Shown here in pieces: positions 1 through 35,665 of a stretch of DNA of 64,000 nt. The notes beneath the pieces are model-generated. The model was not told the DNA's origin. It saw only the letters and a program-made list of their open reading frames with translations, and made no database searches. Position 1 is the stretch's first letter. The number at the start of each line of letters is the position of its first letter. Location: assembly GCA_044229975.1 (NCBI GenBank), contig JBGARZ010000024.1, positions 1 to 64,000 of the forward strand, given 5' to 3'. The stretch comes from Polyangiales bacterium (lineage in GTDB: Bacteria > Myxococcota_A > Polyangia > Polyangiales > Ga0077539). A program made the position numbers and the translations under genes.

Positions 1-4746
<4,746 letters not shown>

Positions 4747-9189: not shown

Positions 9190-10044
9190 GTGACAGAGCC
9201 CGTGGACGCCGAGTGGATCGCCTTCGCCGCCGGACTGAAGCCCGCGATCCGACGCACCGCCGACCCGGCCGACCTCGATCGGGTGGAGGCGCAGCTCCGC
9301 GCGAGCGGTGGCGCCGACGTGGTGGTGCTGCGCGCGAGGGAGACGGCGCTGTTCGGCGCGAGGGAGCAGGCGGTGCTCTACGTGGCCCGGTCGCGCGATC
9401 ACGCCGAGGCGCTGCGGGAAGCGGAGGAGGGTGTTCTGTCGGGGCGCGAGCAGGCACCCGATGGTCGGGCGCGACACGCCACCATCGGGCGGCTGCTGGG
9501 CTTCCCAGCGTGCTGTGTCGAGGCGTTTCTGGTGAGGCTCGACCGCGGCGTCGACCGGCTCGAAGCGGGAGGCATCAGCGGGCTCGCGGAGGACTACGTC
9601 GCGCTGCGCAGCGCCTGGGTGGCGGAGGCCGACGCGCGGGTGAACCCGCTGCTCATGGGGGTGCGGGCGCAGCTCGTGTCGTTCTATCCGTGCCGGTACG
9701 ACTGCCCTGAGGCGGTGGCGCGGGCGGAGGGCGTGCGCGCCGTGGTAGCAGCGCGGCAACCGAAGACCGCGGCTTCGCTCATGGGGTTGCTCTCGCGCCC
9801 GGTGGTCGTGACGCCGGATGGGGCGCGGGCGCTGGTGGCGCTGGATGACGCGCGGGTGGTGGAGCGCGCGGCGGCACCGCGGCGACCCGATGGCGGGAGC
9901 AACCCGCGGGACGTCGCGCTGGCCGAGACGCTGACCGGGCAGAGGGTGAAGGACACGGGAGAGGTGGAGGGAGAGCTGACGCGCGGACTGCCGGCGTGGT
10001 GCGTGGACTTCGGGGGCGTGTCCCTGCGGTCGGAGTTCCGCTAA
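9190..10044 (+). CDS. DUF483-like Cys-motif protein
   Basis: WIAFAAGLKPAIR...GRLLGFPACCVEAF...NPL...FYPCRYDC. The same domain occurs in 10055-12652 and 19047-20543. Confidence 0.7.
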   Translation: MTEPVDAEWIAFAAGLKPAIRRTADPADLDRVEAQLRASGGADVVVLRARETALFGAREQAVLYVARSRDHAEALREAEEGVLSGREQAPDGRARHATIGRLLGFPACCVEAFLVRLDRGVDRLEAGGISGLAEDYVALRSAWVAEADARVNPLLMGVRAQLVSFYPCRYDCPEAVARAEGVRAVVAARQPKTAASLMGLLSRPVVVTPDGARALVALDDARVVERAAAPRRPDGGSNPRDVALAETLTGQRVKDTGEVEGELTRGLPAWCVDFGGVSLRSEFR

Positions 10045-10054
10045 GACACCGGGC

Positions 10055-12652
10055 ATGGACGAACCCGCGGTGGCGATCCTGCTGTTTCAGGTCGCGCAGA
10101 GCCGGAACTTCATCCACGACGACCTCATCCCCGCGTTTTCCGCGGCGCTCTCGGCCCGCGGCGTCGGCAACGAGCTCTTCGAGACCACGCTCCCCGCCAT
10201 CGACGCCGCCGACGCGGCCGACCTCTCCGCCGTCGATGCGCTCGCCGATCGCCTCCGCGGGCGCTACCGGGTCTGCGGCTACGTCCGCCTCTGGAGCGAG
10301 GCCGTCTTCCAGCGCCTGCGCTCGCTGCTCCCGGGCGTCACCTGGGTCTACCTCGGTGACCCGCGCGTGGCCTTCCCGGGCACCGATCACGCGCTGCCGC
10401 TCACCCAGGTCGAGTCCTTCGCGGCCGTCACGCGCGCCGTGCTCGCGGGCGATCCCGTCACCGACGCGATGCTCGCGCTGCCCCACACCGAGCTCACCCG
10501 CGCCCACGCGCAGGACAACCTCGTGCGCATCGGCGTCGGCGCCCGGAAGCGACCCGATCGGCCCGCCGTCGTGCACGGCAGCGCCGGGTGCGCCTACGGC
10601 CAGAGCGTGCTGGAGAACCCACACTTCGCGGGCGTTCCGTTTCCCGACGAGAAGGTCGTGCTGAAGGGGTGCAGCTTCTGCGCGACGGGCGGCATCCCGC
10701 GTCGGCCCGCCGGGGAGGTGCTCGCGTCGGTGCTCGCGCAGCTCGACAACCTCCTCGACCACGAGCCCGAGACGGCGCGCATCCAGCTCAACGACCAGAA
10801 CCCCTTTCCCTATCTCGTGCAGTTCATCGAGCGGTTGGGCGCTCGCGCCACGCAGCCCATGGAAGTGCTTATCGAAACGAGGGCCGATTGGTTCCTCGGG
10901 TCGATGGTGGTGATGGAGCGGGCGCTCCAGGCGGCGGAGCGGCACGGGCACCGGATTCTGTTGTTCCTGGTGGGCCTCGAAAGCCTCTCGCAGAAGGACC
11001 TCGACCTCTACAACAAGGGCGTCACCGTCGAGCAGAACGAGCGCACCGTGCTGGAGTGCCGACGCCTCCGCCGTCGCTACCCCAAGAGCTACTCGGACAC
11101 GCCCGCGGCCTTCGGGTTCATCCTCTACAACCCGTGGACCGAGCTCACGGACATCACCCTCAACCTCGACACCGCCGAGCGCATCGGGCTCCAGGAATTC
11201 CGCGGCCAGGTCACGCGCGCCAAGCTGCGGCTCTACCCCGACACCGCGCTCTTCTACAAAGCGAAGCACGAGGGGCTGCTCGCCGATCGCTTCCCCTACG
11301 AAGCGATGGATTCGGCGCGGCGCTATGGCTACGAAGCGGAGGTTCCGTGGCGCTTCGCGCGGCGCGAGACCGACCGCGCGTACGGCGTGCACGACGCCAT
11401 CTTCCGCACCGTCGGCAAGCACGAGGAGGTGCGCATGCTCCGCGAGATCGTGCGCTTCCTCGAACGCCGTCCCGACCGCTGGGACGACACGGTGCCCGTC
11501 CTCGCGCGCGACATCGTCCGCTCGCTCGGGTCGCGCTTCCAACGCGACATCCTCCACGGCGCGCCGATGCCCGCACCGTCGCGCGCACCATCGTCATCGG
11601 GGTCGTCCAACGCGCGGTCCACGGAGCCGGGGGTCACTCCGCTCGCGGTCGATGATCGCGCCGGGTGGCAGCGAGCGAGCGACGCCGCGCGAGAAGCACG
11701 AACCCCCGCCGACGTGCTGCGAGCGGCGGGCTTCGAGGCGCCCGATGACCTGCCCAGCGAGCTGCCCGCGATGGCGGTGGATCCGTGGCGGGTGGACGTT
11801 CCGCGGCTGGAGCTGATGGCCTACGAGCACGGCATCAAAGCCGGGCTCTACCTCACGCTCCCGCGCGCCGAGGCCGACGCCATCGCCGCGCGCTTCGGCG
11901 ACGGCCACCACATGACCCGCGTGGACTACCTCTTCGCCCACGACGCCGTCACCGACGTGCGCCGCCGCGCGCCCGCCGCGCCCGGCGAGGGCACCCACGT
12001 GGACCTCTTCATCGCGCGCGATGCGGCCGTCGTCGAGCGCGCCCGCGTCATCTACGAAGACCCCCGCGGCCCCAGCGAACACCTCGCCGAGATGGGCGCC
12101 ATGCTCGGCTATCCGCCGTGCTGCGTGGCGGCCTTTGCGGCGCTGCCCGACCGCTCCAACAACACGGCCATCCGCTACGCCGCCGTCGCGCGAACGCGGG
12201 CGCAGGGGCTGCCCTTCGCGCCGGTGCTCAACAACCTCTTCGCGTACGTGCTGCCGTCGTTTCCGTGCTCGTACGGGTGCCCGCATGCGATCGCGCAGGC
12301 CGAGGCGGTGCTGGCGATGTTGGAGCGCGTTCAGCCGGAGACGGCGGCGACGCTGCGGAAGGCGCTCGCGCGGCCGGTGCTGTTCGTCGACCACGCGCGG
12401 CTCGTGGTGCTGGAGGGCGCGCGGCAGGACGGCGACGTGGTGCGCTACTCGGGCGCGCTGGGCGGCGTCTCGCCGACGGACGATCGGGCCGTGCGCGATG
12501 GCTTCGAGCGGGCGATGGGCGCGGTGCTCGCGCGGGGCGACGGGCTGCGCGTGACGGCGAGCGGTTTGGAGGTCTTGCGCGGGGGAGAGCGGGCTGTGTG
12601 GTTGCCGCGGCGGGCGCCGGGGCTCGGGGTGCTGGCGCCGTTCGGGCTGTAG
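10055..12652 (+). CDS. Radical SAM protein with non-canonical CX26CX2C motif, fused to a C-terminal DUF483-like domain
   Basis: GC-AYG...LKG-CSFC, VGLESLS..DLDLYNKG and GFILYNPWT, followed by LGYPPCC...FPCSYGC. Confidence 0.8.
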   Translation: MDEPAVAILLFQVAQSRNFIHDDLIPAFSAALSARGVGNELFETTLPAIDAADAADLSAVDALADRLRGRYRVCGYVRLWSEAVFQRLRSLLPGVTWVYLGDPRVAFPGTDHALPLTQVESFAAVTRAVLAGDPVTDAMLALPHTELTRAHAQDNLVRIGVGARKRPDRPAVVHGSAGCAYGQSVLENPHFAGVPFPDEKVVLKGCSFCATGGIPRRPAGEVLASVLAQLDNLLDHEPETARIQLNDQNPFPYLVQFIERLGARATQPMEVLIETRADWFLGSMVVMERALQAAERHGHRILLFLVGLESLSQKDLDLYNKGVTVEQNERTVLECRRLRRRYPKSYSDTPAAFGFILYNPWTELTDITLNLDTAERIGLQEFRGQVTRAKLRLYPDTALFYKAKHEGLLADRFPYEAMDSARRYGYEAEVPWRFARRETDRAYGVHDAIFRTVGKHEEVRMLREIVRFLERRPDRWDDTVPVLARDIVRSLGSRFQRDILHGAPMPAPSRAPSSSGSSNARSTEPGVTPLAVDDRAGWQRASDAAREARTPADVLRAAGFEAPDDLPSELPAMAVDPWRVDVPRLELMAYEHGIKAGLYLTLPRAEADAIAARFGDGHHMTRVDYLFAHDAVTDVRRRAPAAPGEGTHVDLFIARDAAVVERARVIYEDPRGPSEHLAEMGAMLGYPPCCVAAFAALPDRSNNTAIRYAAVARTRAQGLPFAPVLNNLFAYVLPSFPCSYGCPHAIAQAEAVLAMLERVQPETAATLRKALARPVLFVDHARLVVLEGARQDGDVVRYSGALGGVSPTDDRAVRDGFERAMGAVLARGDGLRVTASGLEVLRGGERAVWLPRRAPGLGVLAPFGL

Positions 12653-12655
12653 GCG

Positions 12656-14260
12656 TCAGCGCGGGACGAGGCGGTACCAGCCGAGGCGCACCTGGCAGGG
12701 GCGGGCCCAGGGGCCTTCGAGGGTGAAGCCCGTCGGGTCGCCGGGGCACTGACGGTTGATCATCGTGCTGGTGACGGCCACCGTGCGGGTGACCTCCTCG
12801 ACGGGGACGAGGTCGAAGCGCGCGCGCAGGACGGCGAGGCGCTCTTCGTCGCGGAACAACCCGAGGTAGAGCCGCGCGCGGTCGCCGCCGAGGCGCTCGG
12901 GGCACGAGGCCAGGACGCGCTCGACGTCCCGCACGGCCAGCGGGGCGTGCGAGGCCTCGCAGGCGAGCGGCCAGGGGAGAGGGCCCGCGACGGTCGCCAG
13001 CGCCATGATCGGGTTGCCCTCGACGGCGAGGTTCGACAGCCCTTCGCCGTGGTTGCGGTTGGCCAGCAGCAGCGCCTCGCGGTGGCCGAGCACACGGCGC
13101 GTGGAGGCGCGGAGGTAGTCGAACTCGACGGCGAGGTCTTCCGCGCGGCGGAGCGTCGAGAAGTACAGGGGCAACGGCGCCAGCGCGATCGCGATCGGGA
13201 CCACGGCAAACCACTGGCGCCAGTAGCGCTCGGGCGTCCGTGCGAGGAGCCACTCGACGAAGGCCGCCGCGGCGACCGCGATGGGCGGGGCGAGCGAGAT
13301 GTAGTAGCGCCACTGCCCCCAGCGGGGGTTGGCCTCGGAGGCCATCGTCCAGTAGCTCGCGGCGAGCAGGGCGACGGTGAGCAGGAGGGCGAGGCGGAGG
13401 TTCCAGCGTGGGGCGGTGGGCAGGATGACCCCGGCGGCGGCGGCGTAGAGCCACCACACGGGCATCAGCGCGGCGCCCCGCAGGACGAGCGGGACGAAGC
13501 CGGCCGAGTGCCCCGACCGGATCAGGGTTCCGTGGTCGGGCACGAGCGCGGGCAGGTAGGCCGCGAAGCCGAGGAGCAGGCACGCCGCCAGCTGACCGCG
13601 CTCCTTCCACGTCCACCCGGGGCCGAGCACGACCGCCGCGAGCGGCACCACCAGCAGACGAAACTCCGGCCGCGCGTAGACCCCGAGCACCGTCAGCGCC
13701 GCCAGGATCACCGGACGCCACGGGGCGCCGACGCCGCCCGCCGCGGCCACGGCGAAGGCGGCGATCCAGAAGGGGGTTCCTTCGACGGCGAAGGTCAGCC
13801 CCGTGGAGTAGTGCAGGTGCGCCGGCCACGCGCAGAGGATCGCCGCCGCCAGCAGCGCGCCCGCCCGCTTGAGCCCGAAGCTCTGCGCCATCAGGTAGGT
13901 GGCAGCCACCGCCCCGGCGCCCGCGAGGGGGGGAGTCCAACGCAGCAGGGTGGCCACGCCGAGGCCCAGGCCGTGGAGCGCCGCGGCCAGCAGCGGCACC
14001 GTGGAGAAGTGCTGCGGGAGCTGCCCGGAGATGCCCCACAGGGCTTCGAGGCGCTCGCCGTCGGCGAAGTTGAGCGGCCCCCAGGGCAGCGCGACGCGCG
14101 GCACCAGCGCGGTGACGAACACCACCGGCAGCAGCCATCGCTCGACGGGAGAGCGCCACCACCAGCCCGCGCCGCGGGCGACGACCCAGGTCAGGGTCAC
14201 GGCCCAGGCGGCGGTCACCGCGACCGCGTCGGCGTTTTGGAGGAGGACGTTTTGCGCCAT
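12656..14260 (-). CDS. Polytopic membrane protein, GT-C (PMT/ArnT-like) glycosyltransferase-like
   Basis: About 10 hydrophobic segments, YARPE and WRYY motifs and a soluble C-terminal domain. Paralogous to 29026-31494 (C-termini VRLGWYRL vs VELGLYRI). Confidence 0.6.
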   Translation of the reverse strand: MAQNVLLQNADAVAVTAAWAVTLTWVVARGAGWWWRSPVERWLLPVVFVTALVPRVALPWGPLNFADGERLEALWGISGQLPQHFSTVPLLAAALHGLGLGVATLLRWTPPLAGAGAVAATYLMAQSFGLKRAGALLAAAILCAWPAHLHYSTGLTFAVEGTPFWIAAFAVAAAGGVGAPWRPVILAALTVLGVYARPEFRLLVVPLAAVVLGPGWTWKERGQLAACLLLGFAAYLPALVPDHGTLIRSGHSAGFVPLVLRGAALMPVWWLYAAAAGVILPTAPRWNLRLALLLTVALLAASYWTMASEANPRWGQWRYYISLAPPIAVAAAAFVEWLLARTPERYWRQWFAVVPIAIALAPLPLYFSTLRRAEDLAVEFDYLRASTRRVLGHREALLLANRNHGEGLSNLAVEGNPIMALATVAGPLPWPLACEASHAPLAVRDVERVLASCPERLGGDRARLYLGLFRDEERLAVLRARFDLVPVEEVTRTVAVTSTMINRQCPGDPTGFTLEGPWARPCQVRLGWYRLVPR

Positions 14261-14290: not shown

Positions 14291-16831
14291 CTACGCCGTC
14301 TCTTGCATCCGGGTCACGAGCTGCGCTTCGTGGGCGACGAAGCCCAGCAGCGCCTCGCGGTAGCGCTGCACCATGACGGTGTCTTCGAGCGCCGGGTCGA
14401 CCTTGCGGTAGGCGAAGCCGAGCTGCTCGCCGCGCACCAGCGACGGCCGACCGGCCGACAGCAGCCGGACCTCCAGCATGTGCCGCACGCCGCCGCCGTC
14501 GCGGAAGCCCAGCGTGAAGCCGTCGACGCCCAGCACCACCTCGACGCCCGTGCGCCACGGCGCGGGGAGCAGCTCGTCGACGAGCGCGAGGAGACCCGGC
14601 GAGGCGGGCCGCGCGGGCTTGTCCTCCTGGAGCCACGGGAGGATGCGCTCCTCGCGGTCGAGCAGGCGCTGGAGCACGGCGCGGTACTGCGCGGTGCGCG
14701 CGGCGTCCTCGGCCTGGCCGTCGAGCAGGAGGTACGCGTAGGCGAGCCCCGCGCCCGTGAGGAGGGCGGGCGCGTCGGGGTGGATCTCGTGGACGTAGAG
14801 CGTGTGCCAGGCGTCGGTCGCGTCGCGCAGGCGCGCCACGAAGCCGTGCTCGGTGAGGGTGACGTCGAGGTCGCGTCGCCACGTGTCGGGCAGCGCTTCG
14901 GCCACGATGGCGACGAGCTCGGGGGCGGCCGGGCGGATCAGCGGGTCGTTGGGCGGCTCGGAGGGGTAGTAGGCCGGCGCCTTCATGGAGGCGAGCGAGA
15001 GCCACGGGAGGATGTCGTCCTCGCGCTGACTGATGGCGGTGAGCGCCGCGCGGTAGCCGTCGAGCACGGCGGCCTCGTCGAGGGACGGGTCGACGAGGGT
15101 GTACGAGTAGCCGAGCCTGGTGCCCGCGACGAGGGGCGACGGGTCGACGGGGAGCTCGCGGGCGTCGAGGGCGTGCTGGCGCCCGTCGGCGTCGCGGAAG
15201 CGCAAGAGGAAGCCGCCTGGCGACAGCGTCGCGGACACGTCGTGTCGCCACGCCTCGGGCAGCGCCTCGCGCAGTAGGGCGGCGAGCTCGGGCGGCGCGG
15301 GGTTTTCGTTGGGAAACGCGACGGCGGCCTCTTCGCTGACGGGCGCGGCGACGTCGGCCGGCGGGGGCGTGGCGTCGATGAAGGGCAGGAGGTCGTTTTC
15401 CCGGGCGGCGAGCCGGCTGAGGACGGCGCGGTACTCGCCTGCCTGGGCGGTCTCCTCGACGCCCCCTTCGATGAACAGGTACGAAAACGCGAGCACGCGG
15501 CCGTTGACCAGGGTGGGCGCCTCGGGGCTGATCTCGCGGGCGTCGAGGGCGTGGTGGACGCCCGCCTCGTCGACGAACTGGAGCACGAAGCCGCCCTGGG
15601 TGAGCGAGACGGAGAGCTCGCGGCGCCACGCCGCGGGGAGCTCGGCGCGCACGACGGCGACGAGCCCGGCCGGGGCCGGGCGCTCGCTGGGGGGCGGCAG
15701 CTTGCGGGTGCTTCCGGAGGCGACGGCGGTGGGCAGCCCGTCGGCCTCGTCGGGCGAGAACGAGAGCCACGGGAGGATGTCTTCCTCGCGGAGGCTGATG
15801 GCGGTGAGCGCCGCGCGGTAGCCGTCGATCACGGTGGCCGCGTCGAGGGCGGGGTCGACGAGCGTGTACGAGTAGCCGAGGGCGGTGCCCGCGACGAGGG
15901 CGGTGGCGGTGAGGCGCAGCTCGCGGGCGTCGAGGGCGTGCTGGCGCCCGTCGGCGTCGCGGAAGCGCAAGAGGAAGCCGCCTGGCGACAGCGTCGCGGA
16001 CACCTCGTGGCGCCACGCTTCGGGCAGCGCCTCGTGGAGGATGGCGGCGAGCTCGGGCGGCGCGGCGTGCTCGTCGGGGAGCGCGGTGGCGGCCTCTTCG
16101 CTGACGGGGGCGGCGACGTCGGCCGGGGGCGGTGTGGCGTCGAGCCAGGGGAGGAGGTCGTCTTCGCGGGCGGCGAGCCGGCTGAGGACGGCGCGGTACT
16201 CGCCGGCCTGGGCGGTCTCCTCGACGCCGCCCTCGATGAACAGGTACGAGAACGCGAGGACGCGGCCGCTGACCAGCGTCGGGGCCTCGGGGCGAATCTC
16301 GCGGGCGTCGAGGGCGTGGCGCACGCCCGCCTCGTCGACGAACTGGAGCACGAAGCCGCCCTGGGTCAGCGAGATGGAGAGGTTGTTGCGCCACGCCTCG
16401 GGGAGCTCGGCGCGCACGACGGCGACGAGCGCGGCGGGGGCGGGTCGCTCGCCCGGCTGCGGGCCGCGGAAGGGGAGCGCCGTGTTTTCGACGGGCGCCT
16501 CGGGCTCGGGCATCCAGCGCAGGAGGTCTTCCTCGCGGGCCGCGAGGGCGGTGAGCACCGCGCGGTAGTCGTCGAGGACGGTGGCCTCGTCGAGGCCCGG
16601 CTCGGCCAGGGTGTACGAGTAGGCGAGGGCGGTGCCGGTGACGAGCGCGGTGGGGAGCTGCTCCAGCGAGCGCACGTCGAGGGCGTGCTGGCGCCCCTCC
16701 GCGTCGCGAAACCGGAAGGTGAATCCCTCGGGGGAGATGGCGGTTGTCAGCTCGTGTTGCCACGCCTCAGGCAGCGCCTGGCGGAGGATCGCATTGAGCT
16801 CGTCGAGGGCCTGCGCGGAGGGCTCGTCCAT
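14291..16831 (-). CDS. Protein made of seven tandem copies of an unnamed ~100-aa domain (putative scaffold)
   Basis: Seven copies of LPExWRx..GFxLxFxDxxGxxHALDxRE..LVxGxxLxYSY..YRAxLxxLxxREEDLLPW with Pro/acidic linkers. No signal peptide. Confidence 0.85.
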   Translation of the reverse strand: MDEPSAQALDELNAILRQALPEAWQHELTTAISPEGFTFRFRDAEGRQHALDVRSLEQLPTALVTGTALAYSYTLAEPGLDEATVLDDYRAVLTALAAREEDLLRWMPEPEAPVENTALPFRGPQPGERPAPAALVAVVRAELPEAWRNNLSISLTQGGFVLQFVDEAGVRHALDAREIRPEAPTLVSGRVLAFSYLFIEGGVEETAQAGEYRAVLSRLAAREDDLLPWLDATPPPADVAAPVSEEAATALPDEHAAPPELAAILHEALPEAWRHEVSATLSPGGFLLRFRDADGRQHALDARELRLTATALVAGTALGYSYTLVDPALDAATVIDGYRAALTAISLREEDILPWLSFSPDEADGLPTAVASGSTRKLPPPSERPAPAGLVAVVRAELPAAWRRELSVSLTQGGFVLQFVDEAGVHHALDAREISPEAPTLVNGRVLAFSYLFIEGGVEETAQAGEYRAVLSRLAARENDLLPFIDATPPPADVAAPVSEEAAVAFPNENPAPPELAALLREALPEAWRHDVSATLSPGGFLLRFRDADGRQHALDARELPVDPSPLVAGTRLGYSYTLVDPSLDEAAVLDGYRAALTAISQREDDILPWLSLASMKAPAYYPSEPPNDPLIRPAAPELVAIVAEALPDTWRRDLDVTLTEHGFVARLRDATDAWHTLYVHEIHPDAPALLTGAGLAYAYLLLDGQAEDAARTAQYRAVLQRLLDREERILPWLQEDKPARPASPGLLALVDELLPAPWRTGVEVVLGVDGFTLGFRDGGGVRHMLEVRLLSAGRPSLVRGEQLGFAYRKVDPALEDTVMVQRYREALLGFVAHEAQLVTRMQETA
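14995..16450 (-). repeat. Recent 765-bp-period tandem duplication (domain copies 2-3 vs 4-5)
   Basis: Near-identical DNA at a 765-bp offset, for example 15171 vs 15936 and 15541 vs 16306. Confidence 0.85.
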
Positions 16832-16908
16832 GGTGCCGCGATGCTATCATGGCGCCGCTTCGGCAATCCCCGACTCTCCGGCACCGCGAAGGCCGTCAAA
16901 AACACTCC

Positions 16909-19044
16909 ATGGACTCCCTCCCCGCGCTGGATAGCCTCGCCCTCCACGAGGTCTGCATCACGCTCCGGTGCGACGGCGGGTGCTTCTGGAACCAGCACTG
17001 CCGCGGCCCCGAGGGCCCCGCCTTCGAGCCCGGTGAGGGCGGCCACCACTTCGACGCCCGCGAGCCCGGTCGGGTTCGTCTCGCGGGAGGAGACCCGTTT
17101 CGCTACGGCGACGTGGTGGCCTGGGCCCGCTGGGCGCGCTCGCAGCCCCTGGGCTTCCTCGAAGTCGAAGGCCCGGCCGTGTCGCTCGTCGATCCGTCGG
17201 TGGTTCCGCGCCTCGCCGCGGCCACACCCGACGCCGTGCAGGCCGTGCTCCCCACCCTCGACCCCGCGCGCCTCGCCGCGCTCACCGGCCGTCCCGTCGA
17301 CGTCGCAGCCCTGCTCGCCGGGCTCCGCTCGGTGCGCGACGCGGGGCTGCGCCTCGTGGTGGTCGTCCCCGTCGACGCCACCACCGCGCCGCTGCTCACG
17401 GGCACCCTCGCGGCGCTGCGCGAGCACCTCGGTCCCGATCTCCCGGTGGTGCTGCGTCGCCTCCCGGCGAGTCTCTCGGGCGCCGCGCCGTGGTCGGAGG
17501 TCGCGGCCCTCTCGGCGGCGCTCACCACCGTGGCCGAGACGCCGTCGCTCGCGGGCGACCTCACCGTCGACCCGGTGGCCAACTGGGGCGCGTGCCTCGT
17601 TCCGCCGGCGGCGTGGCGTCACGGGCTCATTCCCCTGTCGCGCACTCCGCGTCGCGAGGGACCGCAGCTCGGCCCCGCGTGCGAGACCTGCGCGCTGCGC
17701 CCGCGCTGCACCTGGAACCCCGGCGAGACCCCACCCCCCGACGGCAGCCTGCATCCGCTCACGCACGACGAGGCGCTCTCGCTGCACCGCCTCTCGCCGC
17801 ACCTCTCGCTCGAACACCAGCCCAAGACCGACCGCACCAAACGTGACCGCCGGGCCTTCGATCTCCCCGAGCTGCTCTGCTTCGCGCCCTTCACCTCGCT
17901 CGTGATGTGCGACACGCCCAACGCGCCGGTGCCCTGCGCCGAGTCGTGGGTCCGCACCGAGATGACCGTCGCCGAGCAGGCCCAGTCGCTCGGCATCACC
18001 ACGGCGGAGATCGAGGCGCGCAACACCACCAGCTACGCGCGCTGGGGCTATCCGTCGTTCGTCCCCGCCAACGAGGACTGGTCCATCCGCGAGATGTGGA
18101 ACGGCCCGCTCGTCCTCCACATGCGCCGCCAGATGCTCGGTGGTGGGCCGTCTGATCGGTGCCGCGGCAACTGCCGCCCGATGCTCGGCGTGGAGGAGCC
18201 CTTCTTCGACGCGCTCACCCGCCCCGACGACCGCCTCTCGCCGGAGATCGTCGCCAACCGCCGCAAGCTCATCGAGGAGATTCGCGATGGGCGCAGCGTG
18301 CTCACGGCCAACCCCCTGGAGCTGGTGCTGGGCGTCGCGTCGCACTGCAACATCACGTGCGGGTTCTGCACGGGGCCGATGGGCGCCTACGGCGAGCTCT
18401 CCGAGCGGCGCTTCGACGAGGTCATCGAGCTGCTCCCCACGCTGATGACCCTGAGCGTCATCGGGCCGGGCGAGCCGCTGATGAGCAAGCGCTTCCCGAA
18501 GCTGCTCGCGCACATCAACGACCGCGGCTACCCCGCGCTCCAGGTGTCGCTCACCACCAACGGGACGCTCATGACCAGGAGCTGGCTGGAGCGCCACGCC
18601 AACGTGCGCTTCAACCACATCCGCGTGTCGCTCAACGCGGGCTCGGCCGAGACGCACGAGCGCATGACGGGGAAGAAGTTCTTCGAGCGGCTGATGCCCA
18701 CCATCGACGCGCTCGCCGAGCGCAAGGCCCGCAGCGACTCGCGCTTCGAGCTCACCCTGAGCTGCGTGCTCTCCAGCTATGTCATGGGCGACCTGCGCAA
18801 CTTCGCCGAGATCGTCGACCGCGCCAACGCCAACATCGTCGTCGAGCCCATGTACGGCAACATGCTGGGCCTGAGCCCCTACGTGCGCGGCGAGAAGCTC
18901 CGCGCGCTGCGCGACGAGTGCGCCGGCGTCTCCGCCGCCTTCGAGGTGCGCAACCCGAAGATCTCCCGGGCGTTTCGCGCGATGGAGCAGTTCGCCAGCC
19001 AGCGGCTGCGCACGCGCAACCTCGCGGTGCTCCCGCAGCACTGA
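16909..19044 (+). CDS. Multidomain radical SAM: degenerate rSAM-like N-terminus, SPASM/twitch-like segment, intact C-terminal rSAM
   Basis: CDGGCFWNQHC, AGGDP and a CETCALRPRC tail come first. Then CFAPF..VPC..IREMWNG..CRGNC, then CNITCGFC, GPGEP and TTNG. Confidence 0.82.
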   Translation: MDSLPALDSLALHEVCITLRCDGGCFWNQHCRGPEGPAFEPGEGGHHFDAREPGRVRLAGGDPFRYGDVVAWARWARSQPLGFLEVEGPAVSLVDPSVVPRLAAATPDAVQAVLPTLDPARLAALTGRPVDVAALLAGLRSVRDAGLRLVVVVPVDATTAPLLTGTLAALREHLGPDLPVVLRRLPASLSGAAPWSEVAALSAALTTVAETPSLAGDLTVDPVANWGACLVPPAAWRHGLIPLSRTPRREGPQLGPACETCALRPRCTWNPGETPPPDGSLHPLTHDEALSLHRLSPHLSLEHQPKTDRTKRDRRAFDLPELLCFAPFTSLVMCDTPNAPVPCAESWVRTEMTVAEQAQSLGITTAEIEARNTTSYARWGYPSFVPANEDWSIREMWNGPLVLHMRRQMLGGGPSDRCRGNCRPMLGVEEPFFDALTRPDDRLSPEIVANRRKLIEEIRDGRSVLTANPLELVLGVASHCNITCGFCTGPMGAYGELSERRFDEVIELLPTLMTLSVIGPGEPLMSKRFPKLLAHINDRGYPALQVSLTTNGTLMTRSWLERHANVRFNHIRVSLNAGSAETHERMTGKKFFERLMPTIDALAERKARSDSRFELTLSCVLSSYVMGDLRNFAEIVDRANANIVVEPMYGNMLGLSPYVRGEKLRALRDECAGVSAAFEVRNPKISRAFRAMEQFASQRLRTRNLAVLPQH

Positions 19045-19046
19045 GC

Positions 19047-20543
19047 TCAGAACGCTGGGAACTCCAGCCAGATGGGATCGTCGTCGGAGCGCTCGCCCTC
19101 GGCCAGGTGGCGCCCGCGGCGGTCGATGCCGCAGCGGGTGACGAGCGCGCGGCTCCAGGCGGCCGCGAGGTCGGGCGAGCGGTCGCGCAGGACGCCCAGG
19201 AGCGCGGTCGCGAACTCCGCGGACGCGGGGCAGTCGTAGCGGCACGGGTACCAGGTGACGAGCCGCGGGTGCGCGCGGTCGGGCAGCAGGTTGTTGAGCC
19301 GCCCGAGGAAGGTCTCGCTCGCCCGCGCGGCGGCCTCGGCGGCGGCGTAGTCCTCGTGGGCGAGGGTGCCGTCGAGGCACGCGGTGACGCCGCGGCGCAT
19401 GCGCTCGGCGAAGGCGTCGGCGCAGCACGCGGGGTAGCCCAGCAGCCGGCCGACGTGCGCGTTGCGGCGGGCCCGCTCCTCGCGGTCGTCGCACAGGGAG
19501 GCCCGCTCGGCGTCGGCCAGCGCGCGCGCCGCGGCGTCGTCCCGGGCGACGTACGCGAGGTGCTGGTCGCCGCCGGTGAACTCCAGCGCGTGCTCCGGGG
19601 CGAAGAACCCCCACGACCGCGCGTGCACCCGTCGTTCGAGCGCGGCGAGGTTGGCGTGCTGCGGGAGCACGACGCGGATGGCGGCCTTGAGCCCGGCCTC
19701 GAAGGCCAGCCACTCGGGGCCCTCGTCGATGGCCGGGCCGTGGGCCTCGGGGTCGTGCGCCGTGGCGGCGTCGGCCTCGCCCGCGGCGTAGGCGGCGGTC
19801 AGCAGCGGCGCGAGCTCGTCCTCGCGCTTGGAGAGGGACGTCATCGCGGCGCGGTAGTCGTCGATGAGGCCCACCGGGTCGACGGCCTCGTCGACGCTCA
19901 GGTAGCTGTAGGCGAGCGCCGCGCCCTGCACCAGCGCGGGGCCGCCGGGGCGCAGCGGGTGGATGTTGAAGGCGTGGCGCCGGCCGTCGTCGTCGCGGAA
20001 GTGCAGGAAGATCCCCGGCGGCGACCGCACGGCGACGACGTCGCGGCGCCACCCGGCGGGGAGAGCGTCTCGCGCCGCCTCGGCGAAGCGCAGCGCCACC
20101 GGGTCGGCCGCCGACGCGACGGGAGGAGGCAGGCCCACCACGTGGGAGGAAGGGTTCGTCGCCGCGGAGGTCGGGCCCGTCGTGCTCGGGGTCTGCGTCG
20201 TCGGCCCCGGGATGCACGCGAGGATGTCGTCTTCGTGGGCCGCGAGGGCCGTGAGCGCGTCGCGGTAGGGCTCGAACAGCGCGCTCTCCTCCAGCGCCGC
20301 GGCGACGGGCTCGTGCGCGAAGGCGACCCGCTCCGAGGGGACCAGCGTCGGCATCTGCGGCCGCATCCGGCGCATGGAGAACCCGTGGCGGTGCCCCTCG
20401 GCGTCGTCGAACGACAGCACCAGCGTGTCGCTCACCAGCGCGGCCCTCACGTCGTGGCGCCAGTGTTCTGGCAGCGCGGGGGTCAGCCGCGCGGCGAGCT
20501 CGGCGAGGGTCGTGGGGGAGGGCCGTCCGTCGTTCTCGCGCAT
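19047..20543 (-). CDS. Two copies of the ~100-aa repeat domain fused to a DUF483-like domain
   Basis: LPEHWRHDV.. and LPAGWRRDV.. match the 14291-16831 repeats, followed by WLAFEAGLKAAIR...LGYPACC...YPCRYDC. An alternative start lies at 20558. Confidence 0.8.
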   Translation of the reverse strand: MRENDGRPSPTTLAELAARLTPALPEHWRHDVRAALVSDTLVLSFDDAEGHRHGFSMRRMRPQMPTLVPSERVAFAHEPVAAALEESALFEPYRDALTALAAHEDDILACIPGPTTQTPSTTGPTSAATNPSSHVVGLPPPVASAADPVALRFAEAARDALPAGWRRDVVAVRSPPGIFLHFRDDDGRRHAFNIHPLRPGGPALVQGAALAYSYLSVDEAVDPVGLIDDYRAAMTSLSKREDELAPLLTAAYAAGEADAATAHDPEAHGPAIDEGPEWLAFEAGLKAAIRVVLPQHANLAALERRVHARSWGFFAPEHALEFTGGDQHLAYVARDDAAARALADAERASLCDDREERARRNAHVGRLLGYPACCADAFAERMRRGVTACLDGTLAHEDYAAAEAAARASETFLGRLNNLLPDRAHPRLVTWYPCRYDCPASAEFATALLGVLRDRSPDLAAAWSRALVTRCGIDRRGRHLAEGERSDDDPIWLEFPAF

Positions 20544-20596: not shown

Positions 20597-22930
20597 TCAG
20601 TCGGCCGAGGGCGGCACCGAGCGGAGCTGACCCGCGCGCGTGAAGTACGTCACGCACGACGAGGCGCGGTTGCCACGCAGCATCGACAGCATCTCCGTGA
20701 GCATCGCCACCGGGTCGTCGTCTGATCCCAGCGCGAGCGACGCGTCGGCGTAGAAGCCGGGGCCGCGTCGGCGCAGGGTTGCGAGCACCGCGCGGGCGGC
20801 GTCGAGGTCGCCGTCTGAGACTTCGAGGAGCCCGAGGTTGACCCACGCCCCGATGCGCCCCGGGTTGCGCCGCACCGAGAGCGTGAGGTCGGCGCGCGCC
20901 TCGACCGCGCGGCCCAGGCAACGCATCGCCTCGCCGCGGTAGACGAAGGCCGTGGGGCCAGGGGTTCCGGCCTGCGCGATGCCCTCGGCGAGCCAGCGCA
21001 GGGCCTCCTCGTGGTCGCCGTCGAGCACCCACGCGCCGGCCATGCCGATGTACGCCCAGCGCGACCGGCCGTAGAGCGCGATGGCCCGCTCGAACTCCCG
21101 CTTCGCGGACGCCGCGTCGCCCACGTAGAGGTGCATCTCGCCGCGGTAGTTGTAGGGCTCGGCGGCGTGGGGCGCGCGCTCGTGCACGCGGTCGAGGTCG
21201 GCCATGGGCTCGACCAGGCTGCCCGTCGCGACGAAGCGGTGCAGCGCCCGCTTGGAGGCCACGCGCGGCGACGGCGGGACGTCGAGGCGCACCAGTCGTC
21301 GGTCGGCCGAGCGCACGTAGGTCGCGACCGGCGAGCGGTTGCCCCGCAGCCGCGTGAGGGACTCGGCGAGCGCGGCGTCGAGGTCGTCCTCGGGCGGCGT
21401 TGGAGTGCCCGGCGTCGGGGCCAGGGCGTCGGTGCGCAGGGCCGCGAGCGCGGGGACGAGCACGTACTCGGGCAGACCCGGGAAGGTGTCGGTGCGGAGC
21501 TGCGCGAGCGAGATCACCACCTGCGCCGCGACGTGGTTGGCGATGTCGTCGGACTGCTCGCCGCCGCGCCGGGTCTCGGCCAGCGCCTCGGCGTAGCGGC
21601 CCAGGCGGAGCAGCGCCTCGCCCCGCCACACCGCCGCCACCGGGTCGCCGGGCTGGAGGGCGGCCGCCCGGTCGAGGTCGTCGAGGGCGCCGCCGGGGTC
21701 GCCCGCGGAGACGCGTGAGGCGCCGCGCAGGCACAGCGCGTCGGCGTCGTCGGGGTTGGCCGCGAGCAGGGTGGTGACGTGGTCGAGGGTCGTCGCCCAC
21801 TCGCCGCGCCACGCCGCGAGGGTGGCCAGGGCGAGGCGGGCCCCGGTGTGGTCGGGGTCGAGCGCGAGGAGGCTGGCGTAGCGTTCGCTCGCGGCGTCGT
21901 AGTCGGCGACCTGGCGAGCGAGGTCAGCCAGGTGGAACCGCAGCTTCGGGTCGTCGTCCGCGGTGGCGAGCGCGCGGTCGGCGGCGGCCCGCGCCTCGTC
22001 TTCGAGGCCGAGCGAGAGCAGCACCGTGGCGGCGCGCAGCGTGAGGCCCGTCGATGATCCTGCGAGATCGAGCAGCGTGCGGGCGTGGGCCGCTGCGCGC
22101 TCGGCGTCGTGCATCTCCGCCCGCCGCACGGCCCCCGCGCCGTGCAGCGCGACGCTCTCCGGGAAGCGCACGAGCGCCTCGTCGAGGGCCGCGAGCGCCT
22201 CGTGGCAGCGCCCGATCTGCCACATGCGCTCGAAGCGCAGGGTGAGCGCGGCGAGCGCGTCGAAGGGCGTCGAGTCGCGCGCGATGGCCGCGAGGTCGTC
22301 GAGGGCCGCGTCGAAGTCACCGCGCTCGAATCGCTCGCGGGCCCGCTCGAAGGCTTCGGGGTCGGCGAAGGTCTCCGGGTGCCAGATGGGGTCGCCCTCT
22401 GGGATGGGGCCTGGTTCGGGCTGCCAGGGCGCTTCGCCCTCGGGGATGGGCGCGGGCGGGGGTTGCCACGGCGCTTCGCCCTCGGGGACGGGCGCGGGTT
22501 CGGGTCGCCAGGGCGCTTCGCCCTCCGGGATGGGCGCGGGCGCGGGCGCCCGGCGGGTCGAGCCGTAGGCGGGCGGGGCGGGGGGCGGGGGGCGTTCCCA
22601 GACGAAGTCGGTCTCGGCGTCGCGCACCGCGGCGAGCAGCGCCGAGAGGAGCGGCGCGAGCCCGGCGGTGCCGCGCGGCGCCAGCAGGCGGACGGAGAAG
22701 CGCTCGGTCGCGGGGCCCCCGTCGGCCGCGTCGGAGTGCGCGAGGTGCAGCTCGGCGCGCACCCTCGGCGGGCCCGCTCGCAGGTAGCGCGCGCGGATGG
22801 TGGCGCCCTCGATGCGCGCGTCGACGAAGGCCCACCCGTCGGGCAGCGCGGGCGCGACCATGCGCCGGACGAGCTCTTCCTGGCCCGCGGGGATGACCCT
22901 CTTCTCAGCGGAGTCCGTCGGTGGCGTCAT
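20597..22930 (-). CDS. TPR-repeat protein with N-terminal accessory domain and Pro-rich repeats
   Basis: Many TPR-like helix pairs (ALALDPDH, AEPYNYRGE, AWVNLGLL). The N-terminus IPAGQEELVRRMVAPALPDGW is shared with 61261-63408. Confidence 0.85.
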   Translation of the reverse strand: MTPPTDSAEKRVIPAGQEELVRRMVAPALPDGWAFVDARIEGATIRARYLRAGPPRVRAELHLAHSDAADGGPATERFSVRLLAPRGTAGLAPLLSALLAAVRDAETDFVWERPPPPAPPAYGSTRRAPAPAPIPEGEAPWRPEPAPVPEGEAPWQPPPAPIPEGEAPWQPEPGPIPEGDPIWHPETFADPEAFERARERFERGDFDAALDDLAAIARDSTPFDALAALTLRFERMWQIGRCHEALAALDEALVRFPESVALHGAGAVRRAEMHDAERAAAHARTLLDLAGSSTGLTLRAATVLLSLGLEDEARAAADRALATADDDPKLRFHLADLARQVADYDAASERYASLLALDPDHTGARLALATLAAWRGEWATTLDHVTTLLAANPDDADALCLRGASRVSAGDPGGALDDLDRAAALQPGDPVAAVWRGEALLRLGRYAEALAETRRGGEQSDDIANHVAAQVVISLAQLRTDTFPGLPEYVLVPALAALRTDALAPTPGTPTPPEDDLDAALAESLTRLRGNRSPVATYVRSADRRLVRLDVPPSPRVASKRALHRFVATGSLVEPMADLDRVHERAPHAAEPYNYRGEMHLYVGDAASAKREFERAIALYGRSRWAYIGMAGAWVLDGDHEEALRWLAEGIAQAGTPGPTAFVYRGEAMRCLGRAVEARADLTLSVRRNPGRIGAWVNLGLLEVSDGDLDAARAVLATLRRRGPGFYADASLALGSDDDPVAMLTEMLSMLRGNRASSCVTYFTRAGQLRSVPPSAD
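22380..22545 (-). repeat. Four tandem PxP(I/V)PEG(E/D)xxW linker repeats
   Basis: PAPIPEGEAPW, PAPVPEGEAPW, PAPIPEGEAPW and PGPIPEGDPIW. Confidence 0.85.
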
Positions 22931-22998: not shown

Positions 22999-24348
22999 AT
23001 GCCCACTGCCCCCCTCAGCCCCTTCGTCGGCGCGCTGGCCGCCGCGATTCGCGAGGCGCTGTGGGCCCTGGTGGCGACCGACGACGCGCGCCCCGCGGGC
23101 TTCACCCTCGACGTCCGCACGAGCCCTACCCCCGGCTGGAACGCCTCCGTCTCCCTCACCCTCCCCGCGGGCGAAGTGACCCTCGACGTGGCCGACGCCG
23201 CGACGCCGCGCGACGCGTGGTTTCGCACCGCCCACTTCGCGTGGGCCTACCGCGCCGTCGGCGGCCGCGACCCCTTCGCGCACCCCGCGTCCGCCCAGTG
23301 GCTCAAAGGCTTTCGTGAGCGCGTCACGCTGCTCGATCGCTCGCCCCTGGCGCCGCCCGTCGTGCGCGCGGTGCTCGACGCCGCGTCGCGCTACCTGCCC
23401 TTCGCGCGCGTTCGCGACGAGGACTTCCGTCTGTTGATGGAAGGCTCCGAGGGGCCGACGGGCATCCTCTGGCTGGGCTTCGGCTGCGACCAGGACTGCG
23501 TCATCTGCTGGCAGAGCCGCACCGCGCCCGAACCTCCGCCCGAGCACTTCTCCCGCTGGCTCGACGAGATGCTCGCGGCGGGCGTTCGCTCGGTGATTGT
23601 GAGCGGCGGCGAGCCCACGATGCACCCGCTGCTGCTCGACCTCGTGCGCCGCACCCACGCCGCGGGCGTGCACGTCGTCGTCGAGACCAACGGGCTGCGC
23701 CTCGCCGACGACGCGTTCCGTCGCGCGCTGCGCGAGGCGGGCGTCGACGAGCTGTCGGTGTCGCTGCACGCGCCCGACGCCGAGACCTCCGAGGCCATCA
23801 CCCGCGCGCCGGGCACCCACGCGCGCACCGTCGCGGGCGTCGAGGCCTGCCTGCGCGACGGCCTCTCGGTGGGCCTCCACTGCGTCGTCGAGCGCCGCAA
23901 CGCTCCTGCGCTCGCCGCCCACGCGGCCTTCGCGGTCGAGCGCTTCGCCCGCGCCGGTCGCCCGCTGCGGCGCGTCTCGTACAGCCTGCCCACGCGCTAC
24001 GCCGACGCCGAGCGCTACCGCCGCGGCCTCGCGCCCATCGACCAGGTGCGGCCCGGTCTCACGGCGGCGCTCACGACGTTGCGCGGCGCGGGCGTCGAGG
24101 CGCGCTTCCTCGGCATGGGCGGCTTTCCCTTGTGCGCGGTGGACGACCCGCGCGCCGAGCGGCCGTCGGCGATGTTGAGCGCGGGCGAGCGCGGGGATCG
24201 GGTGTACGGGCGGCCCTGCGAGGCGTGCGCGGTGCGGCCGTGGTGCGGTGGTGTTCCGGCGGAGTACCTGGAGGCGTGCGGCGACGGCGGGCTGCGCCCC
24301 GCGCGGGAGTCGTCGATGGCGGGCGTGATGGGAGGGTCTGCGGGATGA
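22999..24348 (+). CDS. HxsC-like radical SAM protein with N-terminal accessory domain
   Basis: CDQDCVIC, SGGEPT, ETNG, FPLC and a CEACAVRPWCGGV..Y..G..GLRP tail. Confidence 0.85.
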   Translation: MPTAPLSPFVGALAAAIREALWALVATDDARPAGFTLDVRTSPTPGWNASVSLTLPAGEVTLDVADAATPRDAWFRTAHFAWAYRAVGGRDPFAHPASAQWLKGFRERVTLLDRSPLAPPVVRAVLDAASRYLPFARVRDEDFRLLMEGSEGPTGILWLGFGCDQDCVICWQSRTAPEPPPEHFSRWLDEMLAAGVRSVIVSGGEPTMHPLLLDLVRRTHAAGVHVVVETNGLRLADDAFRRALREAGVDELSVSLHAPDAETSEAITRAPGTHARTVAGVEACLRDGLSVGLHCVVERRNAPALAAHAAFAVERFARAGRPLRRVSYSLPTRYADAERYRRGLAPIDQVRPGLTAALTTLRGAGVEARFLGMGGFPLCAVDDPRAERPSAMLSAGERGDRVYGRPCEACAVRPWCGGVPAEYLEACGDGGLRPARESSMAGVMGGSAG

Positions 24349-26300
24349 GCGGCGATCGGCCCGAGGGAGCGGCGCTGGCGTCCTTCGGGGCGGAGCGACG
24401 GGTGCTCGGCGAGTGGACCGTGACGGGCGTGACGGGGCTCCTCGCGGGCGGCGTCTCGGTGTGGCTGGAGCGCTCGCGCGACGGGGCGACGTTGCAGGTC
24501 GTGGTGGCCGCTCGCGGCAGCCGCGCGCTGGTCGAGACCCCGTTGGGCAGCGTGCTCTATCACAAGCACACCGGGCTCACCGACCGCGAGGCCGGCGACA
24601 CCACCCGCGCCTTCGCCGCGCTGCTGGAGCGCGGTGACTTCCGCCTCGGCGCGCTCTTCCCCCACCTGATGCTCGGGCAGCGGCCCGACGAGGCCGCCAA
24701 GGCGCGGGTGCTGCAGCTCGCGGGCGCGCAGTTGAAGGCGCTCCCCGGCCCCGGTGGTGCCTCGCTCCCCGAGGCGAAGCGCGAGCTCTTCTTCGACCCG
24801 CCGGGGGTGGCGGAGTTTCTCGCGCCCGAGCTCGTGGTGGAGGGGCCGGGCCTCGCGGGATACAGCCTGCGCGCCATCTACCTGCCCGCCGTGGGCAAGC
24901 GCGCGGCGCAGGAGTTTCGCCACTACGTGCTGGAGTTCGTCGACGTCGCGACGGCCGAGAGCGTGCGGCTGGGCATCGGCGCGGGATCGTCCGGCGAGAG
25001 CTTCGGTCGCGCGGGCGAGCTCTCGCTGAGCGTGCTCGGCTTCACGCAGGACCTCGACGCCCTGCCTCCGCGCGTGGCCTCGCTCTGCTCGTGGGTGCTC
25101 GCGCTCGTGCAGTTGAAGAGCGACGACTCGCTCCGGGTGCGCGTGCCCGCCGATGCCTCCGAGCTGCGCGCGATGGCGCACCCGCCCGAGCGCGGCTGGG
25201 CCAGCTCGCCGGAGGCCAAAGGGAACTCCACCGACACCGCGACGCCGCCCTCGTCGCTCAACCTCGCCATCGACACCGAGTGCGGTCAGCGCTGCGCGTT
25301 CTGCTCGGTGAAGGCGTACGTGCGGCCGCTCGACGAGGGCGCCGTCGCGCTCGACCGCATCCGCGTGCAGCTCCGCATGGCGCGCGACCAGGGCGTGCGC
25401 GAGGTGCGCCTCAACGGCATCGACCCGCTGACCTTCTCGCGCGTGCTCGAAGTGCTCGACGCCGTGCTCGAGTGCGGCTTCCCCAAGCTCTCGGTGTACA
25501 GCCCGTGCCGGCGCCTCGCCGACCCCGACTTCCGCCGGGAGTTTCTGCGCCGCATGCCGCCGGAGTTCGTCATCTCGGTGCCGCTCTACGGTGTCACCGC
25601 GGCGGCCCACGAGGCCGTCACCAACACCCCTGGCTCCTTCGCGGAGGTGCGCGCCGCGCTCGATGGTCTGCTCGCCGAGACCCCGCCCGACCGTGGTCAC
25701 GTGGTGATCTCCACCGTGGTCGTGAAGCAGAACCTCGCGGAGTTTCCCGCCGTCGTGGCCTTCGCGCGGGAGCGCGGTCTTGGTGTGCACCCGCACCTGC
25801 CGTACCCGATGCGCCAGACCACGCGCGACCCCTACGCCGACTCGGCGCTGCGCGAGCGCGACCTCGTCGAGCACTTCGTCGACCACCTCCCGACCGAAGC
25901 GGGCGACGCGCTCACCTGGAGCCTCGGGGTGCTCGGCAGCGCCGTCCCGCACCCGTGCCTGCTCTGGCAGGCCGAGCGAAAGCGCCGCCTCCCGGTCTTC
26001 GGCGCCCGCACCATCGACGACCGCCAGGCCCTCGCGGGGACCGAGTACCGCAGCCGCAAGATCCTCCACGACACCCAAGGGGCCCAGTCGCAGGACAACG
26101 CCTTCGCCGTCGCCACGGTGCCCTGCCCCCACGTCGAGCGGTGCGCCCTCGCGCCGGTGTGCCCGGGCGAGCACTACAGCGTCTACCGCGACCTCTACGG
26201 CCTCGACGAGTTCGCCCCGGTGCGTGTGGCCGACCTCTACGCCGCCGCCCCGCAAGGGGTGGTGCCCGCGATCAGGGCGACGGCGCGGGACTTCGGTTAG
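24345..26300 (+). CDS. Radical SAM protein (NGIDP variant) with N-terminal accessory domains
   Basis: ATGA overlap with the upstream stop. CGQRCAFC, NGIDPL, PHPC and a CPHVERCALAPVC tail. Paralog of 61261-63408. Confidence 0.85.
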   Translation: MSGDRPEGAALASFGAERRVLGEWTVTGVTGLLAGGVSVWLERSRDGATLQVVVAARGSRALVETPLGSVLYHKHTGLTDREAGDTTRAFAALLERGDFRLGALFPHLMLGQRPDEAAKARVLQLAGAQLKALPGPGGASLPEAKRELFFDPPGVAEFLAPELVVEGPGLAGYSLRAIYLPAVGKRAAQEFRHYVLEFVDVATAESVRLGIGAGSSGESFGRAGELSLSVLGFTQDLDALPPRVASLCSWVLALVQLKSDDSLRVRVPADASELRAMAHPPERGWASSPEAKGNSTDTATPPSSLNLAIDTECGQRCAFCSVKAYVRPLDEGAVALDRIRVQLRMARDQGVREVRLNGIDPLTFSRVLEVLDAVLECGFPKLSVYSPCRRLADPDFRREFLRRMPPEFVISVPLYGVTAAAHEAVTNTPGSFAEVRAALDGLLAETPPDRGHVVISTVVVKQNLAEFPAVVAFARERGLGVHPHLPYPMRQTTRDPYADSALRERDLVEHFVDHLPTEAGDALTWSLGVLGSAVPHPCLLWQAERKRRLPVFGARTIDDRQALAGTEYRSRKILHDTQGAQSQDNAFAVATVPCPHVERCALAPVCPGEHYSVYRDLYGLDEFAPVRVADLYAAAPQGVVPAIRATARDFG

Positions 26301-35558: not shown

Positions 35559-35665
35559 CGCGCCGACGCTACGGCACATCCGCCCGCGCAAACAAGCCGC
35601 GCGTTGACGCGCGAGACGCCGCCTCCGTACCATCGAAGGGGCAGCGGCGAAGACACGGCGAGACG

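Follow-up and report, generated by a model that had tools for sequence, protein, structure and literature searches.

A tandem array of an uncatalogued domain in a predicted type-4 HXS island of a Polyangiales bacterium

Described systems and the Polyangiales locus

In its published form, HXS is a four-gene anti-phage module, HxsD-HxsB-HxsC-HxsA, in which HxsB, HxsC and HxsD mature HxsA, a protein with five HxS repeats that, once mature, blocks phage DNA entry from the periplasm, and in which HxsC pulls down HxsD; 99.7% of the module's occurrence is in Pseudomonadota (PMC13128918). The present text concerns a 150-kb contig of a Polyangiales bacterium, the first 64 kb of which are the window analysed here, and in particular the gene at 14291-16831 (the array gene), which encodes seven copies of a domain of about 103 residues (the unit). 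Absent from the family catalogues, the unit is an accessory domain of a system that is itself uncharacterised. It occurs here as an array, and no accessory domain like it is found in the passages on canonical HXS in that source (PMC13128918).

The contig resembles the canonical system (PMC13128918; TIGR03976-03978) in that it carries HxsB and HxsD over their cut-offs and an HxS-repeat protein, and in that many genes of the region resemble HxsC below its cut-off. It differs in scale, with at least 25 genes bearing a radical S-adenosylmethionine (rSAM) motif and 64 repeats, as opposed to four genes and five repeats (PMC13128918). Under the strict form of the motif, the contig accounts for 25 of the genome's 58 such genes. 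Near its far end, HxsB, HxsD, an HxsD-like protein and an HExxH enzyme all score over their cut-offs, and an HxsA4 gene lies between hxsB and an HxsC-like gene. From the NCBIfam type-4 set, both HxsA4 (NF038313) and HxsD-like (NF038315) pass on the contig, whereas the 500-bit cut-off of HxsC4 (NF038332) is reached by no protein scanned (best 142 bits). With HxsA4, HxsB, HxsD and HxsD-like over family cut-offs, the locus belongs to type-4 HXS, and the contig is, judging from its sequence, an expanded island of that type; PADLOC 2023 gives no HXS model match. The 64 HxS repeats of HxsA4 make it the longest among those compared (the others have 12-53), and HxsA4 proteins have a short leader motif in common.

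Two other kinds of system provide points of comparison. In RRE (RiPP recognition element, a RiPP being a peptide made on the ribosome and modified after translation) domains and stand-alone PqqD-type proteins, as described in PMC12710340, the size of ~100 residues, the probable lack of catalysis and the sequence divergence are shared with the unit, as are fusion to rSAM or tailoring enzymes, or free-standing occurrence, in clusters with a leader-bearing precursor. In a working sense the unit is RRE-like, as it occurs both joined to enzymes that modify precursors and on its own next to such enzymes. It differs from RREs in having no PqqD-type Pfam match, in forming arrays of 2-12 copies, and in occurring on exported-type proteins; its peptide binding is putative. 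Cellulosome scaffoldins are secreted proteins with tandem cohesin arrays, Pro-rich linkers and variable copy number, and their modules are all-beta sandwiches. The array is likewise one polypeptide of tandem, similar domains joined by Pro-rich linkers, variable in number and with many enzymes encoded beside it. In contrast to scaffoldins, its model is alpha/beta, it lacks a signal peptide, and the neighboring enzymes bear the same domain rather than a separate dockerin. At best, then, the array may work like an RRE or a scaffoldin by analogy, and it is a member of neither.

The array protein and its unit

A preliminary description of the window, made from its sequence, had taken the array gene for seven copies of one helix/strands/helix module, without a signal peptide and with a recent 765-bp duplication, and had placed two further copies at the start of the gene at 19047-20543. 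All of this has held up. The seven units, separated by Pro/acidic linkers, are 32-89% identical in pairwise comparison (27-89% across all nine units of the window), and unit 7 matches the remaining units at E 7e-92, as opposed to a best E of 0.23 in 200 shuffles. The protein contains no Cys, no HxS motif, no signal or transmembrane (TM) segment and no hydrophobic segment (maximum 19-residue Kyte-Doolittle value 1.25), and its units are acidic, with net charges of -2 to -10. The duplication is real: its segments, 14993-15700 and 15758-16465, share 88.7% nucleotide identity, and of their codons 171 are identical, 29 differ synonymously and 36 non-synonymously. It must therefore be younger than the other units, yet no artefact of assembly.

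A profile of the nine window units found close copies nowhere else in the 10.0-Mb genome. Seven-unit layouts recur in four independent records, one close relative has 5 units, and the number ranges from 2 to 12 across 39 all-repeat records, fragments included. In 91 units the LP..W, D..G.H, Y-R and E motifs are kept at 81-97%; the conserved positions (LP..WR, D..G.H, G, Y, YR, E) look structural, and the unit is likely non-catalytic.

The gene at 19047-20543 continues, after its two units, with a C-terminus that matches DUF483 (Pfam PF04467) at E 1.6e-4 and 22.1 bits. As this lies under the gathering score of 25, the domain is called "DUF483-like". The same part bears LGYPxCC and YPCRYDC motifs.

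The helix-sheet-helix arrangement expected from the sequence was recovered with confidence by AlphaFold2 (AF2), which models one unit as a helix followed by three strands, a short strand, one more strand and two helices (predicted local distance difference test 89.1, predicted template modeling score (pTM) 0.83). A copy from a natural fusion (P0062) models with the same fold, and DSSP assigns H-E-E-E-(E)-E-H-H to the two confident models. TULIP/BPI-like proteins are barrels of ~190 residues with a lipid tunnel. They, and more weakly the KA1 domains, share with the unit a helix, curved antiparallel sheet and helix. The best fold neighbor is the TULIP protein SPLUNC1 (Z 8.2, rmsd 3.1, 97 of 197 residues aligned), followed by BPI (Z 7.2) and others down to Z 4.3. 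However, the unit is half the length of a TULIP domain, identity to these folds is 12%, and Z values of 7-8 are typical background of the fold-search tool. Foldseek against the PDB and viral structures gave nothing at E<=0.001 and no E below 0.08. A frataxin/CyaY fold, considered at first, is absent among the fold rows listed.

No Pfam match at cut-off was obtained for the array protein or for 29 aligned domain members, none for unit or array in NCBIfam (which has no model for either), PHROGs or PADLOC, and none below E 0.07 in a PDB sequence search with the unit. A match to a known unrelated domain, which would have spoken against the preliminary description, was not found. In the ESM Atlas two units had no usable match, which is no evidence of novelty, and no description of the domain or its array was found in literature searches. 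Profile comparison with HxsD or HxsD-like gives an hhalign probability under 1%, and the unit is accordingly no homologue of HxsD. No RRE occurs among the fold rows listed, none of the 29 members has a PqqD-type Pfam match, and the N-terminus of HxsB is unmatched. By the strict secondary-structure definition in PMC12710340, the modeled unit falls outside the RREs. Nor does it belong with the cohesins, given its alpha/beta model, the lack of a signal or TM segment and the lack of any cohesin Pfam match. As the unit has neither the RRE order of elements nor an all-beta cohesin fold, the RRE-like or cohesin-like role suggested in the preliminary description is a functional analogy only.

Carriers of the domain and genes of the island

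A sensitive search of 1.84 billion representatives yielded 53 matches, which were sorted by reading into 25 all-repeat proteins, 11 rSAM fusions with a single unit, 3 DUF483-like fusions, 3 single units or fragments, 1 other fusion, 2 chimeric-looking records and 8 judged false. In 10 of the 11 rSAM fusions, the rSAM part has its best match in the contig gene at 131059-132087 ("rSAM X"), which has no unit here and starts after the place where the unit would be. When 401 genomes of the phylum were searched with rSAM X, 14 had a match, and nine of these, besides the present genome, reached E<1e-40; four weaker matches, to other paralogues, were left out of the count. A fused single unit is present in 8 of these nine, as detected with the nine-copy window profile alone (independent E-value (iE) 2e-11 to 4e-5), and none of the nine has an array; the exception to fusion, G449, lacks both. 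In array genomes, rSAM X is unfused in the present one (G000) and in G723, and probably also in G729, where it lies at a contig edge. In a tree of 59 units, whose root and direction of events are not settled, 8 of the 11 rSAM-fused units cluster (support 94/88) and array units form position classes. Seven of the 11 rSAM-fused units have a net charge of 0 to +3 and an isoelectric point of 7 or more.

With a broader, 29-row profile, 50 of the 401 genomes were matched. Among 74 matches listed, 22 open reading frames from 21 new loci were read. Fifteen are rSAM proteins of HxsC-like, PA0069-like, B12-type or MiaB-like kinds. Of the other seven, three are multi-TM proteins with signal-like N-termini, two of which score over cut-off as PMT_2; the rest are a PhyH dioxygenase, a TPR protein, a small protein resembling a lipoprotein and one that is unassigned. 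Four sub-families were matched by the narrow profile at 89-97%, with reversed controls under 1%, although they had been chosen with a profile containing the units. HxsB is present in 47 of the 50 domain genomes, compared with 143 of 401 overall, and within families f2 and f3 it occurs in 4/4 and 2/2 domain genomes; two of the three domain genomes lacking it are represented by half-length matches. The connection to rSAM enzymes drawn in the preliminary description is thus upheld by the fusions, the fused/unfused pattern of rSAM X and this co-occurrence, and the domain did not turn out to lie mostly outside rSAM loci. In one genome (G722, L107:379-3087), in which HxsB was not found, a single fusion joins an rSAM part, a domain copy and a part of nitrogenase component 1 type.

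On the contig itself, at least four rSAM proteins and one TPR protein bear a divergent copy (Table 1), and no copy was found in the 33 rSAM-motif genes located off the contig. In these iterated searches, reversed decoys appeared from iteration 2 onwards at iE 0.04-0.5, and the E-values of rows included in the profile, being circular, were not used. Several candidates were discarded: iteration matches on C31, C38 and C27 as likely false, most of 23 domains proposed by eye on the contig as unsupported (including 8488-9135, the N-terminus of 24345, and contig 116183 and 108233), and an SCP2-like C-terminus of P0042, also seen by eye, for want of Pfam or PDB support. The C-termini of 4939 and of a halogenase at 109614 are suggestive only (16% and 25-39%).

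Within the bacterium's own family, 6 of the 31 genomes, from three genera, have arrays (G723 and G743, with identical coordinates, were counted once); arrays were found in no other family of a class-wide sample, from which the partial matches in G335 and G176 were dropped. G741 and G742 belong to another genus; in both, the array gene directly precedes the orthologue of the rSAM gene at 22999, and in one it overlaps that orthologue.

Table 1. Features of the contig that bear on the array and its domain. Positions are those of the contig, whose first 64 kb form the window.
Feature	Position	Strand	Remarks
Array gene P0001	14291-16831	-	846 aa; only seven ~103-aa units and linkers
Units 1-3	16505-16813, 16136-16444, 15758-16066	-	
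Units 4-6	15371-15679, 14993-15301, 14624-14932	-	
Unit 7	14300-14608	-	terminal-unit class common to distant arrays (9 rows, support 96/36)
Duplication, 765-bp offset	14993-16465	-	units 2+3 against units 4+5; aa identity 89% and 83%
P0002	19047-20543	-	498 aa; units 20205-20513 and 19794-20102, then DUF483-like domain
DUF483-like gene, stand-alone	9202-10044 (also given as 9190-10044)	+	passes PF04467 at 26.9 bits
DUF483-like fused to rSAM-like protein	10055-12652	+	
Multi-TM protein	12656-14260	-	co-oriented, 30 nt downstream of array gene; no Pfam/NCBIfam family of note
Radical SAM protein	16909-19044	+	divergently oriented to array gene; within 4 kb of array in related loci
TPR protein	20597-22930	-	divergent N-terminal copy 22586-22882; weak, iE 0.0065, iteration 2
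HxsC-like rSAM	22999-24348	+	divergent N-terminal copy 23032-23361, iE 3.8e-4, no decoy under 0.5
HxsC-like rSAM	24345-26300	+	homologue P0057 has fused unit; own N-terminus unmatched
Multi-TM protein	29026-31494	+	lipoprotein-type signal by eye; divergent copy 29146-29439, iE 0.0023, hhalign 96.5%, reversed 1.6%
HxsC-like rSAM	61261-63408	+	divergent N-terminal copy 61282-61575, iE 3.6e-7
Contig gene 111716			divergent copy, hhalign 95%
Tat-signal protein beside hxsC	120863-121609 (L019:4863-5606)	+	weak distant member, 75%
HxsA4	124642-125418 (G000:C30; L019:8642-9418)	-	258 aa, 64 HxS, NF038313 245 bits
Contig gene 132138			divergent copy, iteration 2

The surroundings contain further genes of note. 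The three DUF483-like domains of the window (9202-12652 and 19047-19720) have LG(Y/F)PxCC and (Y/F)PCxxxC motifs in common, for which metal or Fe-S binding is possible. Cys-rich repeat proteins (6-17% Cys) are encoded at 1141-4746, 26446-28107 and 31498-32226 in the window and at 65327-67204 and 137866-150355 further along the contig, some of those in the island with lipoprotein-like starts; with 213 such genes genome-wide, they are not specific to the island. Genes for heptose-type sugars, for GT9 and for a NodU-like carbamoyltransferase (34110-37866, 49757-51592 and contig 67210-67776) lie among the rSAM genes and suggest that a glycan may be built or attached. Two related proteins without annotation (58247-59062 and contig 130168-131049) have, by eye, a common FF/DNDxNRYCYA-like stretch, and each adjoins rSAM genes, one of them beside rSAM X. 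A possible integrase-like gene was noted by eye at 53239-54366. Several genomes of the same genus (G347, G744, G746, G749) have neither HxsB nor units, and the island was not found in them. On another contig (G000:C20:549233-552103, L119), this genome encodes one more HxsB together with a short HxS protein of 5 repeats, and so combines a compact HXS locus with the expanded one.

Possible roles of the array

Starting from the observed array, fold model, fusions, fused/unfused pattern, co-occurrence and precursor, the reading preferred here, if tentatively, is that the array is a multivalent binder that holds the (His-Gly-Ser)64 protein HxsA4 for enzymes without their own copy of the domain. The unrelated nature of the carriers points to a shared client rather than one cognate enzyme. 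For several rSAM classes, a TPR protein, a dioxygenase, DUF483-like proteins and exported-type proteins, whose domain also tracks HxsB, the simplest common denominator would be something on which they all act. The obvious candidate is HxsA4, with the domain recognizing its leader, its repeat core or its modified product. The array would have originated by release of the domain out of an enzyme, followed by tandem amplification. Several units could then bind simultaneously, whether to multiple sites of a single long precursor or to more than one precursor, which would concentrate substrate or enzymes in trans and help enzymes such as rSAM X. Through its own two units, the DUF483-like protein would be tethered to the array's client. 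Maturation of E. coli HxsA by cytoplasmic-type rSAM enzymes and its periplasmic end, as given in PMC13128918, would fit the presence of the domain on both cytoplasmic and exported-type proteins.

A broader version of this proposal, which must be called doubtful, has the unit as a precursor handle of a new, non-RRE fold, common to cytoplasmic proteins (radical SAM, halogenase, dioxygenase) and exported ones (glycosyltransferase-type, TPR, Tat-signal), and polymerized in one myxobacterial family into a scaffold of 2-12 units. Such a handle might accompany the His-Gly-Ser protein while it matures and crosses the membrane, and the scaffold would spread out a substrate of 30-64 repeats for dozens of enzymes, as a scaffoldin whose business is post-translational modification. 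A candidate escort for HxsA4, which has no evident signal peptide, is the Tat-signal protein beside hxsC.

A number of observations weigh against HxsA4 binding by the array. No signal peptide is evident in HxsA4, so its export is an assumption. Its leader is acidic, as are the array units, so that the two would pair badly unless the ligand is the His-rich core. The array is optional, since 7 of 11 HxsD-like-positive genomes of the family have no unit match. No rSAM X was detected in three of the six array genomes, no HxsA4 in three and no HxsB in two, the genomes concerned being 80-96% complete and mostly fragmented assemblies. The HGS tracts are long in array genomes (64, 53 and 32) and shorter in other families (12-23), a correlation confounded by kinship because a relative of the fused type (G295) has 37; in all of the genome counts, that of HxsB included, kin are not independent. 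Three of the divergent copies are encoded on other contigs, where no rSAM-motif gene adjoins them. Finally, the AF2 model of the natural fusion P0062 (pTM 0.77) has a low-confidence linker and unclear packing.

The same evidence may be read in other ways. The array could be a cohesin-like docking scaffold that assembles enzymes, each unit binding an rSAM barrel, above all that of the unit-less rSAM X. The fused/unfused pattern of rSAM X is as expected in that case, as are the coupling of the array gene to an HxsC-like rSAM gene in G741 and G742 and the position-specific unit classes of the tree, which could have different partners. Such docking is nevertheless unlikely, considering that unrelated folds (TPR, PMT_2-type, PhyH, DUF483-like) and exported-type proteins also carry the domain in fused form, that half of the array genomes have no detected rSAM X, and that the fused-protein model is ambiguous. 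Alternatively, units could bind divergent copies or each other, making the array a rack for domain-bearing proteins. Copies on at least four island rSAM proteins and the TPR protein, and the contrast between acidic array units and the neutral to positive charge of most rSAM-fused ones, would suit such pairing. It would not explain why rSAM X lacks a unit exactly where an array exists, a cytoplasmic rack would be out of reach for exported copies, and carriers and units share less than 25% identity; we regard it as quite unlikely.

Binding of a small ligand is another option, for example a membrane lipid or lipid-linked sugar modified by the island's glycosyl and rSAM enzymes, with the array as carrier or store. 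The TULIP proteins at the head of the fold neighbors, the weaker KA1 resemblance, the heptose, GT9 and carbamoyltransferase genes of the island and the existence of PMT_2-type carriers all lean that way. It is rendered improbable by the background level of those Z values and the half-length fold, by the acidity of the unit where the lipid-binding surfaces of KA1 domains are basic, and by a distribution that follows HxsB. The array might also be a lineage-specific sponge that titrates a ligand as regulator or decoy, or a by-product, expanded under weak selection and with no scaffold function. Either would fit the spread of copy numbers, the restriction of arrays to one family in the class-wide sample and the many non-synonymous changes since the duplication. 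The frames are open, though, the motifs are well kept over 91 units, and arrays adjoining rSAM genes persist in three genera, which leaves this account distinctly improbable. Lastly, the preliminary description had allowed that the array was itself a repetitive substrate, as its repeats and the rSAM genes on its flanks might suggest. Because the island has a dedicated precursor in HxsA4, that idea is now unlikely; moreover, the units are modeled as folded domains without Cys or HxS, and the enzymes contain the same domain. Of the options set out here, it is the one we would least expect to be true.

In the type-4 HXS islands of Myxococcota, many rSAM enzymes surround one precursor, and the domain is a concrete candidate for the means by which they find it. 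The domain also marks enzymes of the pathway even where these are scattered over the genome, and the unit is a small, soluble, well-folding protein suited to binding trials with a synthetic leader or an (HGS)n peptide. Should the unit bind, its fold would be one for recognition that the RRE definition does not cover, and genome mining would gain a new handle; as a scaffold in peptide modification, an array made wholly of recognition domains would be unusual.

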